Positions 31,666-44,072 of a stretch of DNA of 64,000 nucleotides are shown piece by piece. The notes under the pieces were generated by a model. That model was not told the DNA's origin. It was given only the letters and a program-made list of their open reading frames with translations, and made no database searches. The stretch's first letter is position 1. Every line of letters begins with the position of its first letter. Origin of the DNA: an uncultured bacterium (GTDB lineage Bacteria; Oederibacteriota; PGYV01; CAWJRG01). Location of the stretch: positions 288,001-352,000 of the forward strand of contig CAWJRG010000009.1 of NCBI GenBank assembly GCA_963845185.1. The letters are read 5' to 3'. The position numbers and the translations under genes were made by a program.

Positions 31666-31842
31666 CCGCCGACAAAGTTGGCGGTATCCTCTCCCTTGAC
31701 GGGAGAGGATAAAGGTGAGGGTGAAGCAGCAGCAAAACGGCATTAATGGTATAGATGTAAAGTGCCGCTACATCACCCTCATCCCGACCTTCCCCCGTCG
31801 AGGGGGAAGGGGTGTTCTTAAAGCCGCTGATAAAGTTGGCGG
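31666..31842. repeat. BIME-like cluster of REP-like palindromes
   Basis: CCTCTCCCTTGACGGGAGAGG..GGTGAGGGTG and inverted CACCCTCATCCCGACCTTCCCCCGTCGAGGGGGAAGGG, flanked by two CCGCYGAYAAAGTTGGCGG hairpins. Confidence 0.7.
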
Positions 31843-39719: not shown

Positions 39720-40562
39720 ATGAGCTTACATGATAAAGTAAAAGAACAAGTGCTGTTAAGCTGTAATAGTCTAGGTTTTCAAGCCAAGGAAGAATACAGT
39801 GGTAAAGATTGGCAAGCAGATGTTTTTGTGCTTACTAATTACGCAAAATATGCCTTTGAAGTTCAAATAACTCAGCAGTCATTGAATGAAACGTTGGCAA
39901 GACAGGAAAAATATAAAAGGGATGGTGTCATCGGCTGTTGGCTGTTTGAAAAAGAGCCAGCTGGGCAAAAAGATGAAAGAGAAGACCTTCCTTTATTTAA
40001 GATAAAAAATGTAGAAGATAAAACTATTGTATCCATCAAAGATAGAAAAGAACTGCCACTAGAAGTTTTTATTAGTGATTATCTTCAGAATAAAATTAAA
40101 TTTTGTCAAACACTTAGGATGCCTATAGCAGAGATTAGATTTGTAAAAGAAAAATGTTGGAAATGTGGCTTCGAATATCATATCTACTATATTGGTAACT
40201 TTATTTCGCCGTGCAATGCAAAAATATTGCCTAATGAAGCAATGTGGGTTTCAGACAAATTAGCATTTAAGCCTGAGATTATTACTAAAGTGAATGACTA
40301 TGCAATATCCGTAAAGGAACAAAACTTGAATATTGGAACAATAAAAGAACGGTACAGTAAAACGACAGAGAGTTCATATGTATCTTTTGGGTGTCCGCAA
40401 TGCGATGCTATATTCGGGGACTGGTTTCTTCACGAAGCAATTATTGACACATTCTATGGAGGAATTGCTGATAAAATACTAATTGAGGGGAATTTTGGTA
40501 CGCAATTAGAACGAAGTATTCCACATTGGTGTCATCCCGGCGAACATATGTTTTGTGAGTGA
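39720..40562 (+). CDS. CoiA-like PD-(D/E)XK nuclease with Zn-binding motifs
   Basis: WQADVFV..YAFEVQIT..RQEKY...GV..CWLF; CWKC and CPQC. Confidence 0.6.
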   Translation: MSLHDKVKEQVLLSCNSLGFQAKEEYSGKDWQADVFVLTNYAKYAFEVQITQQSLNETLARQEKYKRDGVIGCWLFEKEPAGQKDEREDLPLFKIKNVEDKTIVSIKDRKELPLEVFISDYLQNKIKFCQTLRMPIAEIRFVKEKCWKCGFEYHIYYIGNFISPCNAKILPNEAMWVSDKLAFKPEIITKVNDYAISVKEQNLNIGTIKERYSKTTESSYVSFGCPQCDAIFGDWFLHEAIIDTFYGGIADKILIEGNFGTQLERSIPHWCHPGEHMFCE

Positions 40563-40875
40563 CGGGAAAGCTGCTGCCGGATTTTACCCCACGCTAGCGA
40601 GAGAGTTGAAAGTTGAACAGGCGATGGAAAGATAGAAAAGGAAATCGGGAATAGAGAATAGGGAATAGGAGAAGGAAAATGTTGGGTGCAGATTGTAGAG
40701 TGTTGATTGAAAGATGAAAACGTAACTTTTAAGGCCTGACACCAACTTTCCCCGGCTTCCGGTGTCGAAAGTATTGTAATTATAAGTTGATATGCGGCAG
40801 AGGATGTTATATTATGTATTCCTGTAAGGAATATAGAGACAAAAAAAATGCCCTGAGAAGGGCGGGAGGCAACAA

Positions 40876-41352
40876 ATGGCACAGAAAAAGCAACAGGCAA
40901 AAAAGGAAAAGACAGGCAACAGTAATCCGGTAGTTATCTGCATTGCGGCAGTGCTTGCCGTAGCTTTAATCATCGCGGCAGTTAAATTGGGCGGCGCCAA
41001 TAAGAAATTGGCGGCAGCAACCGCCCAGTTAAAAACAGCCCAGGCAACTATTGCCCAGCAGCAAACCCTGCTGGCAGCGAAACCGCCGCTTCCGGTTTCC
41101 ACCGCGCTTTCCACACCCGGCCAGTATAAAAACACCGTGGTTTTTTTAACAAATACAAACGTGCCGCAGCCTCTTACAGTCACGGCAACCCTGTCAAACC
41201 CGGCTCCCAATAAACCAGGCACATACGTGTTAAACATAAATCCCGGCGCGAAAAAGTCTTTTGGCCACGCGCAGGGACTGATTTTTAACCACGGAGACAG
41301 GATCACTTTCCACAACGACAGTTATTCTGATGTCACGGTGGTAATACCGTAA
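40876..41352 (+). CDS. Hypothetical membrane-anchored protein
   Basis: GGAGG RBS, basic N-terminus, TM, short coiled coil, beta-rich C-terminus. Confidence 0.7.
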   Translation: MAQKKQQAKKEKTGNSNPVVICIAAVLAVALIIAAVKLGGANKKLAAATAQLKTAQATIAQQQTLLAAKPPLPVSTALSTPGQYKNTVVFLTNTNVPQPLTVTATLSNPAPNKPGTYVLNINPGAKKSFGHAQGLIFNHGDRITFHNDSYSDVTVVIP

Positions 41353-41374
41353 ATCAGGCGTAAAAAAGAGTCCT

Positions 41375-41415
41375 AAAAAACCACGGGAACAATACGAGCC
41401 CCGTGGTTTTTTTTT
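41375..41415. terminator. Bidirectional rho-independent terminator
   Basis: A6-CCACGGG...CCCGTGG-T9. Confidence 0.7.
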
Positions 41416-41639
41416 AGGAGATGCGCTTTGAAAGCGAAAGAAAAAAGCAAAAAGTGTTAGACCTTGCTTCGTGCTTTATTAAATTTATTTTATGTCAAGA
41501 ACTGTTTTTTTCAGGAGAGGGAGATAAAGCACCCTCACCCTGTTCCTGTTGAAGAATACTTATTATATATTTTATGGACTCTCAACGTTGAATATTCCAC
41601 TGGAATATTCAACCCCTTCTCTGAAAAGGCTTGTCAAGC

Positions 41640-41758
41640 ACAAATCCAAGTATAAGGGCTAAAATGTTAATTAACCTTCTCTTCGCCGCAGTTCTTTTCA
41701 CCCGGCATTATAACAAATCAAATTAAGGCCCTCTAACCTCTCCCACAGCCCAGAAGAT
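41640..41758 (-). ncRNA. Putative bridge/seek RNA of the IS110 element
   Basis: Non-coding region 3' of the recombinase with a 10/11 match to the target flank and an 8/8 match to the donor end. Confidence 0.6.
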
Positions 41759-42808
41759 TTACTGACTCAGGGGAAAACAGAGCGGCCTATAAGTATATTT
41801 TTTATATATCCTTTCTTCATAACCACGATTTTCTTTGAGCATTTTAAATATTATTTCTGCCATGTGCCTTGCAACTGCTATTATTGCCTTGTTTGAACCT
41901 CTGCGGCTTTTTACGTTCAAGTATATTGATTTAAAATACAAAGAACTTCTTACCGCTGTCCAAGCTGCTTCTACAAACGCACATTTTAAATGTTTGTTTG
42001 CCTGCCTTATTATCGGACCTCTATGTATTGTTTTATTACTCGCATATTCGCTTGGAACCAATCCGGCATATGACGCTAATCGTTTTGCCTTAGAGAATCT
42101 ATTTATATCAACTATTTCAAACGCCACTACCTTTGAAAGAACTTCTCCAAATCCAGGTACCGTCTTTATTATTTCCACATATCTATCTTTCCCTGTCATT
42201 TCTTTTGCAAGTTTTTCTGTTGCCTTTATTCCTGTATTAAGTTCGTCCACCAAATGCATCTCGAGGTTCAGCAATTCACGTTCGCTTTTTACCAGTTCGA
42301 CTCTTTCTATTGTGTCCCTGCCTTTTTTCCCAAACAAATCGCTGTGTACGCTTGTATCTATATGGTTCCTTGTCAATAACTGGTGCACCCTATTTTTTAC
42401 AGCTGTCCGTGTGCTCACCAGGAATTGCCTCTCTCTTAATATGTTCTTCTTAAGCCTTATTTCCTTCGACGGCACATATACTTCCGGTATTAAATTTGCT
42501 CTCAACAAATGGGCCAATATCTCCGAATCCCTTACATCGTTTTTTATCTGGCTTTCCGCTATCGCTCTCAGCTTCTGCGCATGCGCCAATTTTGTCTTTA
42601 CGCCGAGTTCCTCCAAAAGGTCGTACACTACTCCCCAGCAGTACGTTGTCTCAATTACCGCTTCGCATTCCTCTCCAATCTCAGCCAGCATTTTCTTAAA
42701 ATCCTCTGTCCTGTTTGAAAGAGCTCCTCTAAATCTGACTTGACCTTCTTTTGTCACCGCTGTAACATAAGACACGTTCTTGTGCACGTCCACACCAAGA
42801 TACAACAT
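41759..42808 (-). CDS. IS110-family DEDD recombinase/transposase
   Basis: LGVDVHK, AVIET, KNDVRDS, TVPGFG, LASYAGLVPSEYAS, AIIAVAR. Confidence 0.95.
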   Translation of the reverse strand: MLYLGVDVHKNVSYVTAVTKEGQVRFRGALSNRTEDFKKMLAEIGEECEAVIETTYCWGVVYDLLEELGVKTKLAHAQKLRAIAESQIKNDVRDSEILAHLLRANLIPEVYVPSKEIRLKKNILRERQFLVSTRTAVKNRVHQLLTRNHIDTSVHSDLFGKKGRDTIERVELVKSERELLNLEMHLVDELNTGIKATEKLAKEMTGKDRYVEIIKTVPGFGEVLSKVVAFEIVDINRFSKAKRLASYAGLVPSEYASNKTIHRGPIIRQANKHLKCAFVEAAWTAVRSSLYFKSIYLNVKSRRGSNKAIIAVARHMAEIIFKMLKENRGYEERIYKKYTYRPLCFPLSQ

Positions 42809-42929
42809 ACGGCACCTCCTAGGTTTTTAATGTTGTGGGTGCTAACACACGCCACGTTACCATTATACCTGGGGGTGCCTTCTTTTCATATTACCTCTCC
42901 CGCAAGTGGGGGAGGGAGATAAGGATAAA

Positions 42930-43421
42930 ATGAAAAATACTATATATCTTTCTCTCGGAAGCAACATAGGAGACAGGAAAAAAAACATAGCTGAAGCTAT
43001 TGATTCACTGGAAAAAGCAGGAATCAGAATAAAAAAAAAATCAGCATTATATGAAACCGAGCCTGTGGGCATAAAGGAACAGGAAAATTTTTATAATATG
43101 TGCTTAGCCGCGGAAACAGAGCTCGAGCCTGAAGATTTATTGAAAAAAATAAAAGAAATAGAAGCGAAAATCGGCAGGCTTCCATCGCAGCGCTGGGGGC
43201 CGAGGATTATAGATATTGACATATTATTTTATAATAATATAATATTTGAGAATGAAGATTTAAAAATTCCGCATCCTGAAATTTTAAACAGGAAATTTGT
43301 GCTTATCCCCATGGCTGAAATAGCAGGTGACTATGTTCATCCGGTAATTAATTCAAAAATCAAGGATATTTTGAAAAATAGCAATTTGATTGAGAAGGTA
43401 ATAAAAATAGGAGTTATATAA
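42930..43421 (+). CDS. folK: 2-amino-4-hydroxy-6-hydroxymethyldihydropteridine pyrophosphokinase
   Basis: YLSLGSNIGD, YETEP, RWGPRIIDIDIL, IPHP, RKFVLIP. Confidence 0.96.
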   Translation: MKNTIYLSLGSNIGDRKKNIAEAIDSLEKAGIRIKKKSALYETEPVGIKEQENFYNMCLAAETELEPEDLLKKIKEIEAKIGRLPSQRWGPRIIDIDILFYNNIIFENEDLKIPHPEILNRKFVLIPMAEIAGDYVHPVINSKIKDILKNSNLIEKVIKIGVI

Positions 43422-43424
43422 TTT

Positions 43425-44072
43425 ATGGCGGATTTCCATTATATCGCTATCGAAGGCGTATTAGGGGCAGGAAAGACTTCTTTTGCAAAGAGAATGGCAA
43501 AAGACCTGTCGGCGCGGCTGGTGCTGGAGGAAGTGGACAATAACCCGTTTCTTCCGGGCTTTTACAAGGACATGAAAAATTTCGCTTTGCAGACCCAGCT
43601 TTTTTTCCTTTTAAACAGGGCAAAACAGCAGGCGCCTTTAAAGCAGATGGATTTATTTGAAAACAAGATAGTGGCGGATTATTTGATTGAAAAGGACAGG
43701 ATTTTCGCTTATGTGATACTTGACGAAAACGAACTTAACCTTTATGAGAAAATTTACCCAATAGTGGTTGACGACGCAAAGTTATTAAAACCCGACATTG
43801 TAGTGTATTTGCAGGCAAGCGCCGAGGTTTTAATAGAAAGGATAAAAAGGCGCGGCAGGGACTTTGAAAAGCACATTTCAAAAGAGTATATAGGCAGGCT
43901 TGCAGAGGCGTATACTTATTTTTTTACGCATTTTGACAGCAGGACACCGCTTGTAATAGTAAATACCGATGAAATTGATTTTGTGAACGACGAGGAGCAT
44001 TACCAGATGATTAAACAATTTATTTTTAATATAAAAGGCGGAGTTAATTATTACACCCCGCGCCCAAAATAA
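43425..44072 (+). CDS. Deoxynucleoside kinase
   Basis: IAIEGVLGAGKTS, NPFLPGFY, TQLFFL, RIKRRGRDFE. Confidence 0.9.
   Translation: MADFHYIAIEGVLGAGKTSFAKRMAKDLSARLVLEEVDNNPFLPGFYKDMKNFALQTQLFFLLNRAKQQAPLKQMDLFENKIVADYLIEKDRIFAYVILDENELNLYEKIYPIVVDDAKLLKPDIVVYLQASAEVLIERIKRRGRDFEKHISKEYIGRLAEAYTYFFTHFDSRTPLVIVNTDEIDFVNDEEHYQMIKQFIFNIKGGVNYYTPRPK

Follow-up and report, generated by a model that had tools for sequence, protein, structure and literature searches.

A probable IS110-family insertion sequence with an IS1111-type layout and a predicted bridge RNA in an uncultured bacterium of the Oederibacteriota

Introduction

Insertion sequences of the IS1111 type with a seekRNA 3′ of the recombinase gene include ISEc11, ISKpn4 and ISPa11 (Siddiquee et al., 2024, PMC11187229), and the inverted repeats of the IS1111 group are stated to be 7–17 bp (PMC11208160). 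The element under study lies at positions 41616–42896 of a 64,000-nt stretch of DNA, termed the window (positions 288,001–352,000 of contig CAWJRG010000009.1, assembly GCA_963845185.1), from an uncultured bacterium of the Oederibacteriota. It is very probably an intact, and probably recently active, insertion sequence of the IS110 family with an IS1111-type layout, i.e. a short left end, a recombinase gene and a bridge (seek) RNA. An earlier sequence-only reading of the window had proposed an IS110-type recombinase with a readable 3′ guide RNA, and this proposal is borne out by Pfam, by model NF033542 and by a leave-one-out covariance model. The host genome is 3.50 Mb in 11 contigs with 42% G+C; the window is part of contig C9 in the coordinates below, and left and right follow the direction of the gene, which is on the minus strand.

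Copies, limits and insertion point

The genome has five full copies of the element: C9:329613–330901 (the window copy), C9:95265–96552, C10:445104–446392, C5:335600–336888 and C1:322287–323574. The limits common to all five run from 41613/41615 to 42900/42901 in window numbering, and the sequence outside differs. All five left flanks read (G/A)GGAGAGG, followed by TAATATGAAAAG. On the right, ...TTTTCAGAGAAGG is followed by GA in one copy and by GG(A/T) in the other four; read after the AG core, the right flanks begin with GGG in four of the five and with GGA in the fifth.

Two empty paralogs of the occupied C10 site, at C9:653654 and C10:218756, read GGGAGAGGGG and are paralogous to that site over ~70 nt. 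They place the insertion point at GGGAG-AG-GGG, where AG is the shared core, and comparison of the occupied site with both gives 1279 bp of inserted DNA when one copy of the core is counted. The mapping of genomic copies and empty sites that the sequence-only reading had called for thus yields the same boundaries in five copies and an insertion site fixed by two empty paralogs. The insertion point is ambiguous over 3 nt, AGG on the minus strand or CCT on the plus strand, and CCT is indeed present at both boundaries (41615–41617 and 42894–42896), as had been noted. The core is assigned as AG (CT on the plus strand), as previously proposed, because AG is the sole dinucleotide that occurs at both junctions of every element compared; two relatives, L084 and L090, are decisive. 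The five copies and the empty paralogs show a shared short core and no ordinary target duplication, which is the site-specific insertion trait of the IS110 family. The two empty paralogs are among seven perfect target sites (GGGAGAGGGG) that are unoccupied in the genome, against ~2.5 expected from base composition.

A shorter remnant, C10:481955–482182, is 228 bp in length and 92% identical to the element. It consists of the left end and ~45 codons with a broken frame, and its flank, GGGAGATG, differs from the target by one base. This remnant, together with the copy C9:95265–96552, whose frame is broken by two single-base indels, could be taken to mean that the element is a dead relic and that its copies arose by segmental duplication or through the assembly, not by transposition. 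However, the other four copies are identical inside and retain the 349-amino acid frame, the flanks of the copies are unrelated right up to the shared target bases, an occupied site has two unoccupied paralogs, and the catalytic residues are intact; a dead relic has only a small chance of being the correct explanation.

Element DNA was searched for in 40 related genomes, a set without close kin, and none was found apart from two chance-level matches. Among sequencing runs no RNA run was listed; three metagenome runs of a single study gave one contig each (160–458 nt), and these lie inside the element without joints or ends and are uninformative on expression or circles.

The element's ends and a possible junction promoter

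When the two ends are joined on the minus strand, they give TTGACA, a spacer of 17 nt and TAATAT, as the sequence-only reading had it. The left end also holds a resident promoter-like site, ATGAAA-16-TATAAT (42889..42862). By sequence, the junction promoter formed after circularization would be much better than this resident site. An internal promoter-like site at 41962..41933 on the minus strand is not above chance, as a scan gave six sites compared with 3.5 ± 2.0 in shuffles.

The subterminal inverted repeat, TGAAAAG/CTTTTCA, is perfect over 7 bp, or matches at 10 of 12 positions with a 3-nt bulge, and is at the lower limit of the published range. Repeats of relatives reach 12–15 bp (L084, L074). 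Beyond the repeats are six bases on the left and four on the right plus the 2-nt core, a sum of 12 and not 10, the count being dependent on how the core is assigned.

The recombinase

The product of the element's gene scores 69.2 bits (E value 4e-19) with PF01548 (DEDD_Tnp_IS110; RuvC-like), 76 bits (3e-21) with PF02371 (Transposase_20) and 221.5 bits with NF033542, ‘IS110 family RNA-guided transposase’, which has a cut-off of 140. Residues D7, E53, D91, D94 and S257 are invariant in two alignments that include the recombinase, A1 (25 sequences) and A2 (17 sequences), and S257 is aligned with the Ser of the ESG motif in the solved ISCro4 chain. Judged from their position, these five are probably the catalytic residues. 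The motif around the serine reads GLVPSEYASN; GL-P----S is kept with N in place of G, a position that varies (N/S/G/A) within the clade.

Protein searches gave 1770 relatives at E values up to 0.001. The closest outside the genome itself are 73%, 71% and 66% identical. Matches to the solved IS621 and ISCro4 chains cover the C-terminal domain only (E values 1.8e-7 and 7.5e-9).

Two further IS110-family recombinase genes are present in the genome, C6:73855–74838 and C9:363019–363990, the latter ~11 kb past the end of the window. Their products score 206.8 and 195.3 bits on NF033542, above the cut-off. These genes probably carry another type of RNA, since the RNA model of the present element (see below) has no match there.

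A conserved RNA family 3′ of the recombinase gene

DNA of relatives was collected as 80 loci from species genomes (up to 47% identity) and 21 metagenome loci, numbered with the prefix L. The metagenome loci include four elements at 53–56% identity and two truncated copies at 63% and 81%; the nearest relative usable for the RNA is the truncated copy L102. Of the elements in which the motif is visible 27 were chosen, and 26 of these, the window element included, were aligned with MAFFT (alignment A3).

The 3′ regions of relatives have a common layout. A stem strand is followed by a variable segment, a hairpin, a second variable segment ending in AG, and then N-U-A-RRR..CC, which closes the stem. 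Further 3′ is a second loop of the same build, ending for example in AGAGAAG, then TTGACA, the inverted repeat and the end of the element. The AG is invariant in both same-sense guide segments of the 26 sequences. RNAalifold predicts two helices on A3, with changes on both sides in 14 of 16 pairs. Helix 1, the stem of the target loop, has such changes in nine of 11 pairs and pairs in 95.4% of cells; helix 2, the basal stem of the donor-loop hairpin, has them in all five. Overall, 94.0% of cells pair, compared with 37–56% when the partners are slid by one to three columns, and none of 500 shuffles reaches the observed values.

A covariance model, R1, was built from 24 relatives, with the window element and its nearest relative L102 left out. 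Such a check with homologs had been suggested in the sequence-only reading; in the 64-kb window R1 gives a single significant match, full length, on the minus strand (61.8 bits, E value 3.3e-17), the next best having an E value of 0.19, and in the whole genome it finds exactly the five copies. R1 was run on 53 of 87 sources, near-duplicate rhizobial loci and L100 being left out, and it matched 51, including 27 of 29 outside the seed; L021 and L103 are without the region. Rfam 15, searched over 40500–44000 at E values up to 1, gives no relevant family, only a chance snoRNA match at 0.89. The covariance model therefore defines an RNA family undetected by Rfam 15 in this region, and finds the RNA downstream of related recombinase genes across many phyla. 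The 3′ region of the element is a member of this conserved, structured RNA family, which is found behind the recombinase genes of related elements.

These data also bear on where the bridge RNA is encoded. The element could be an IS110-group member in the narrow sense, i.e. IS621-like, with the bridge RNA in its left end and a 3′ region that is merely terminal sequence, and the promoter-like site in the left end would fit this. However, the left end is just 86 nt, whereas the structured RNA is 3′ of the gene here and in 51 of the 53 sources, and all four guide-like segments are located there. The likelihood of a left-end RNA is close to nil.

Guide segments and their partners in relatives

Four loop segments in this RNA family change in step with the element that encodes them, one with its left flank, one with its right flank, one with its right end and one with its left end. 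The tests for the left and right target guides were made without an alignment; for the right target guide this is because the register of the model alignment shifts by one to two columns between elements.

For the left target guide, the 10 nt directly 5′ of the N-U-A motif were compared with 130 nt of 5′ flank at a threshold of at least 7 nt. Twenty-two of the 27 elements were usable (L101, L027 and L085 have too little flank; L102 and L061 lack the gene start). A match to the element's own flank was found in 16 of 21, compared with 16 of 462 cross comparisons; the count was 17 of 22 before L023, a slicing artefact, was dropped. Fifteen of the 16 matches abut the left end, and although the match of L094 is elsewhere, an equally long one abuts its left end. 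The segment at this position changes with the flank, as TGTAAAG, TGTAGAG, GTATCAG, TTTACAG, GCTATAG and others.

The right target guide was sought in the stretch 5′ of the first hairpin, which was compared with the core plus 12 nt of 3′ flank, with complementarity of at least 6 nt required, in 18 elements with a defined right end; L099 was dropped, as its contig stops 5 nt past the core. Own flanks match in 12 of 17 and cross flanks in 24 of 272. The pairing extends up to 10 nt (L084), and most of the complementary segments end in the core complement before the hairpin. On the donor side, the left donor guide appears as a stretch of 7 nt or more that the second loop shares with the right end in 18 of the 27 related elements. 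The right donor guide appears at A3 columns 106–110; full pairing of these columns with the five bases that begin the left end is seen in 7 of 16 own and in 26 of 240 cross comparisons.

It could be argued that the element belongs to the IS110 family but that its target is chosen by the protein or by similarity between end and target, the internal matches being by-products. The target GGGAGAGG and the right end AGAGAAGG are indeed alike, the bridge RNA is predicted from sequence, and the single-sequence fold is not unusually stable. Against this, the guide segment changes with unrelated flanks in the proportions given above, the same tracking is seen on the other side of the target, and the flanking stems covary. 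Choice of the target by protein or by similarity therefore has a very slim chance of being the explanation, and an RNA-guided element is the preferred reading.

The RNA of the window element

The sequence-only reading had pointed to two matches between the non-coding region and the surroundings of the element, and both stand in their essentials. The segment 41675–41682 matches the element end 41615–41622 at 8/8. The other, 41737–41747 (CCTCTCCCACA), matches 42894–42904 (CCTCTCCCGCA) at 10/11 as described; the length of the guide had been overstated, as only (G/A)GGAGAGG is common to the five left flanks, and the additional TG.C match is peculiar to the window copy. Both segments follow TAA/TTAA and begin with CCT, the shared context that had been observed, and both occupy places whose sequence, in relatives, covaries with the left flank and with the right element end. 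When 41623–41758 was put through 20000 mononucleotide shuffles, the first of the two 8-mers was found 58 times, the second 47 times, and both together never.

The left target guide reads in the sense of the top strand across the left target and the AG core, and would pair with the bottom strand. The left donor guide, likewise, is same-sense to the final bases of the right end together with the core. These strand rules follow PMC11208160. The guide for the right side of the target had been missed in the sequence-only reading. It is most likely UUUUCCCCU (41769–41777), the complement of AG-GGG(AAAA) on the top strand, located within the last recombinase codons (F-P-L), as is the 5′ stem strand beside it; the assignment is made because of its loop position and the conserved GGG of the five flanks. 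The pairing of this segment with the right flanks covers 5, 7, 5 and 6 nt in four copies; in the fifth it amounts to 4 nt and a mismatch. The right donor guide is most likely GUUAU, a tentative assignment based on its place in the alignment.

Two other candidates were set aside. GCCCU (~41657–41661) was dropped as a right target guide because it is more likely the pairing partner of AGGGC. AUAAUGCC (41704–41711) was demoted as a right donor guide, as it is less well placed in the alignment than GUUAU. The sequence-only reading had also drawn attention to TTCTTTTCA at 41692–41700, which does recur at 42880–42888. Read in the RNA, this is UGAAAAGAA in the loop of the donor hairpin, and nine bases of the left subterminal repeat have the same sequence in the same sense. 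Such a match is found in only one of 13 elements compared, and is therefore rejected as a functional feature; the match may be due to chance or be specific to the lineage.

In the minimum free energy (MFE) fold of the free RNA, the two target guides pair with each other (UUUCCCC with GGGAGAG; 41737–41777). The pairing in this prediction stems from the target, in which G abounds on either side of the core. Perhaps such pairing could mask the guides until the protein binds.

It should be pointed out that a guide reaching into the gene is not confined to this element, as in some relatives (L022, L029) the left target guide is also inside the recombinase gene. In addition, bases past the core in the same-sense guides show some relation to the other partner. 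In the extension of the left target guide (41735–41736 here) the base at +1 is that of the left end in 15 of 16 cases and the base at +2 in 11 of 16, and in that of the left donor guide (41673–41674 here) the base at +2 is that of the right flank in 6 of 12; much of the +2 signal is a conserved U/T. One idea, and on balance an unlikely one, is that the guide RNA of the clade extends into the last codons of the recombinase and that these extensions do on the bottom strand what the handshake guides of IS621 do by pairing with the top strand. If true, retargeting would rewrite the variable C-terminal tail of the recombinase.

The target and its repeat family

The sequence-only reading had suggested that the element is aimed at a repetitive extragenic palindrome (REP)-like family. 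A palindrome of the form CCCTCTCCC-N5/6-GGGAGAGGG is found at least 23 times in the genome, often beside GGGTGAGGGTG, and GGGAGAGGG itself occurs 53 times compared with ~12 expected from base composition. The family member reported at 31688 in the window is present and reads CCTCTCCC-TTGAC-GGGAGAGG (31688–31712). Both empty paralogs and three of the insertions, those in C10, C5 and the window, are at the 3′ edge of a CCCTCTCCC-N5/6-GGGAGAGG hairpin, perfect or imperfect; the other two insertions are elsewhere, so the suggestion holds in part. Since three of five insertions are at a hairpin edge and two are not, the element appears to aim at a word of 10–12 nt that is often supplied by the repeat family, and not at the hairpin itself.

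A proposed mechanism

The steps that follow are modelled on those published for IS621 and ISEc11. The recombinase would excise the element as a circle, whose junction would read ...CAGAGA-AG-GTAATATG... The junction promoter, TTGACA-17-TAATAT, would then drive the gene and, via read-through, the RNA. The donor loop of the RNA would hold the end junction. The target loop would hold GGGAG-AG-GGG(A), with GGGAGAG paired to the bottom strand and UUUUCCCCU to the top strand. The DEDD/Ser recombinase would exchange strands at the AG core, and the insertion would leave no duplication beyond the shared core. The preferred site would be the 3′ edge of a REP-like hairpin, of which the genome has about two dozen.

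Several points weigh against an intact, RNA-guided element. Expression of the RNA and activity of the element are read from sequence features. The residue after the catalytic Ser is N, compared with G in the published SG/TG motif. The span 41613–41770 of the minus strand, folded alone, is no more stable than shuffles (z 0.17), a span that misses the 5′ part of the RNA. R1 gave nothing better than an E value of 1.6 on an ISEc11-family locus and a Klebsiella IS110-family locus. The ends of single-copy relatives were placed from the inverted repeat and the guide repeat and not from empty sites, and a left-flank match of at least 7 nt is missing in 5 of 21 relatives, as is a right-flank match of at least 6 nt in 5 of 17. 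The pairing of UUUUCCCCU is short (5 to 7 nt), and in a simple search for the longest match it came out level with a spurious AATAT. Lastly, GUUAU pairs with GTAAT, the start of the left end, by three Watson–Crick and two G–U pairs.

Features and genomic neighbourhood

The coordinates of the element and its parts are collected in Table 1.

Table 1. Features of the element and of its target in window coordinates; guide and loop assignments are predictions
Feature	Position	Strand	Basis or remark
Whole element, CT core (AG on minus strand) at each end	41616..42896	-	Five-copy comparison and empty paralogs
Terminal cores	41616–41617 and 42895–42896		CT on plus strand, AG on minus strand
Right end	41618..41637	-	Holds TTGACA and right subterminal inverted repeat, then GAGA before core
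Right subterminal inverted repeat, GCCTTTTCA	41622–41630		
TTGACA, -35 box of would-be junction promoter	41632–41637		
Bridge/seek RNA, extent of covariance-model match	41662..41798	-	R1; starts ~37 nt before recombinase stop codon
Span closed by proposed donor-loop stem	41667..41726	-	UUAAUU (41721–41726) with AAUUAA (41667–41672); by hand, fits constrained fold
Left donor guide, AGAGAAG plus one base (G)	41675..41682	-	8/8 with 41615–41622
Donor-loop hairpin, loop with UGAAAAGAA	41685..41706	-	Helix 2 of A3
Right donor guide (proposed, tentative), GUUAU	41710..41714	-	A3 columns 106–110
Left target guide, GGGAGAG plus one base (G)	41737..41744	-	8/8 with left flank; kept in five copies
Hairpin between target guides, AGUCAG...CUGGGCU	41747..41767	-	MFE fold; compensatory changes in L099, L101 by eye
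Right target guide (proposed), UUUUCCCCU	41769..41777	-	Loop position in relatives and conserved GGG of flanks
5′ strand of target-loop closing stem, GGCCGCUCU	41779..41787	-	Pairs with 41727–41734 (AGAGGGCC); helix 1 of A3
Recombinase gene, 349 amino acids	41759..42808	-	Sole long frame in 41400–43100; Pfam, NCBIfam
Left end, 5′ of gene, 86 nt	42809..42894	-	Sequence reading
Left subterminal inverted repeat, TGAAAAGAAGGC (minus strand)	42877–42888		
TAATAT, -10 box of would-be junction promoter	42888–42893		
Target remnant hairpin, CTCCC-GCAAGT-GGGGGAGGG	42897..42922	.	Just upstream of HPPK Shine–Dalgarno site
Target word of element, GGGAGAGGGGAA			

Of the neighbouring genes in the window (39720–40562 and 42930–44072), one encodes a CoiA-like nuclease-domain protein (PF06054); on the far side of the element are those for HPPK (PF01288) and for a deoxynucleoside kinase (PF01712). 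Facing away from the HPPK gene, the element separates it from any upstream promoter. A repeat of ~90 nt with an internal hairpin (CTCAACGTTGAATATTCCACTGGAATATTCAAC) is at 41524–41612. It has paralogs at C10:190917–191013, C5:752902–752974, C5:23153–23231 and C9:622826–622893, and a short GC-rich hairpin follows each copy. In the window the GC-rich hairpin is followed by the HPPK Shine–Dalgarno site and start, and the element is inserted between the ~90-nt repeat and the hairpin.

Comparison with described systems

The element resembles the IS1111 type as portrayed in PMC11187229 in several respects. Recombinases there are 330–350 amino acids in length, and the present one has 349. Both have a long non-coding region with a guide RNA downstream of the gene, and both have subterminal inverted repeats and ends whose joining would create a junction promoter. 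As in the seekRNAs, the top-strand complement is 5′ of the bottom-strand match (41769–41777 and 41737–41744 here). The differences are a perfect inverted repeat of 7 bp compared with the usual 11–13 bp, an RNA that starts inside the coding region, and SN in place of SG/TG at the catalytic Ser. The bases beyond the repeats also differ, 6 and 4 plus the 2-nt core compared with 7 (or 6) and 3. The transposase is only ~25% identical to one of the ISEc11 family, and the RNA model of this clade misses the ISEc11 3′ region; for these two reasons the element is filed under the IS110 family with an IS1111-type layout and is given no finer subgroup.

Similarities to IS621 extend to an RNA with two loops, a same-sense left and an antisense right guide, a shared 2-nt core, a distal hairpin in each loop, a DEDD plus Ser recombinase and a REP-type target (Durrant et al., 2024, PMC11208160; Hiraizumi et al., 2024, PMC11208158). 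The IS621 core is CT, as it is here when read on the other strand. Unlike IS621, the RNA is 3′ and not 5′ of the gene, the order of guides within each loop is reversed, the protein match is confined to the C-terminal domain, and the region has no Rfam family match.

A third parallel is with ISPpu9 and ISPpu10 of Pseudomonas putida, which are IS110-family elements present in several copies and inserted in repetitive extragenic palindromes (PMC12288879). ISPpu9 also has a small-RNA gene downstream of its transposase gene, as is predicted here. However, the abstract of that report describes the downstream RNA of ISPpu9 as dispensable for transposition and its circles as lacking a hybrid promoter, whereas the ends of the present element would make a near-consensus promoter and its 3′ RNA has guide-like segments; the two are likened by description and not by sequence.

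Every component of the element thus matches what the 2024 papers described, and the mechanism is a known one, which this element leaves unchanged. What might be particular to it, and is not established as such, is the compact form with an RNA reaching into the gene, the short inverted repeat and the hint of cross-partner bases after the core. With 1279 bp the element is compact; candidates for all four guide segments are readable in its sequence, and empty paralogs in the genome define its target to the base. Its lineage is uncultured, and in the protein collection searched nothing exceeds 73% identity to its recombinase. It therefore extends, by a divergent and well-annotated member, the set of bridge recombinases under exploration as genome-editing tools.

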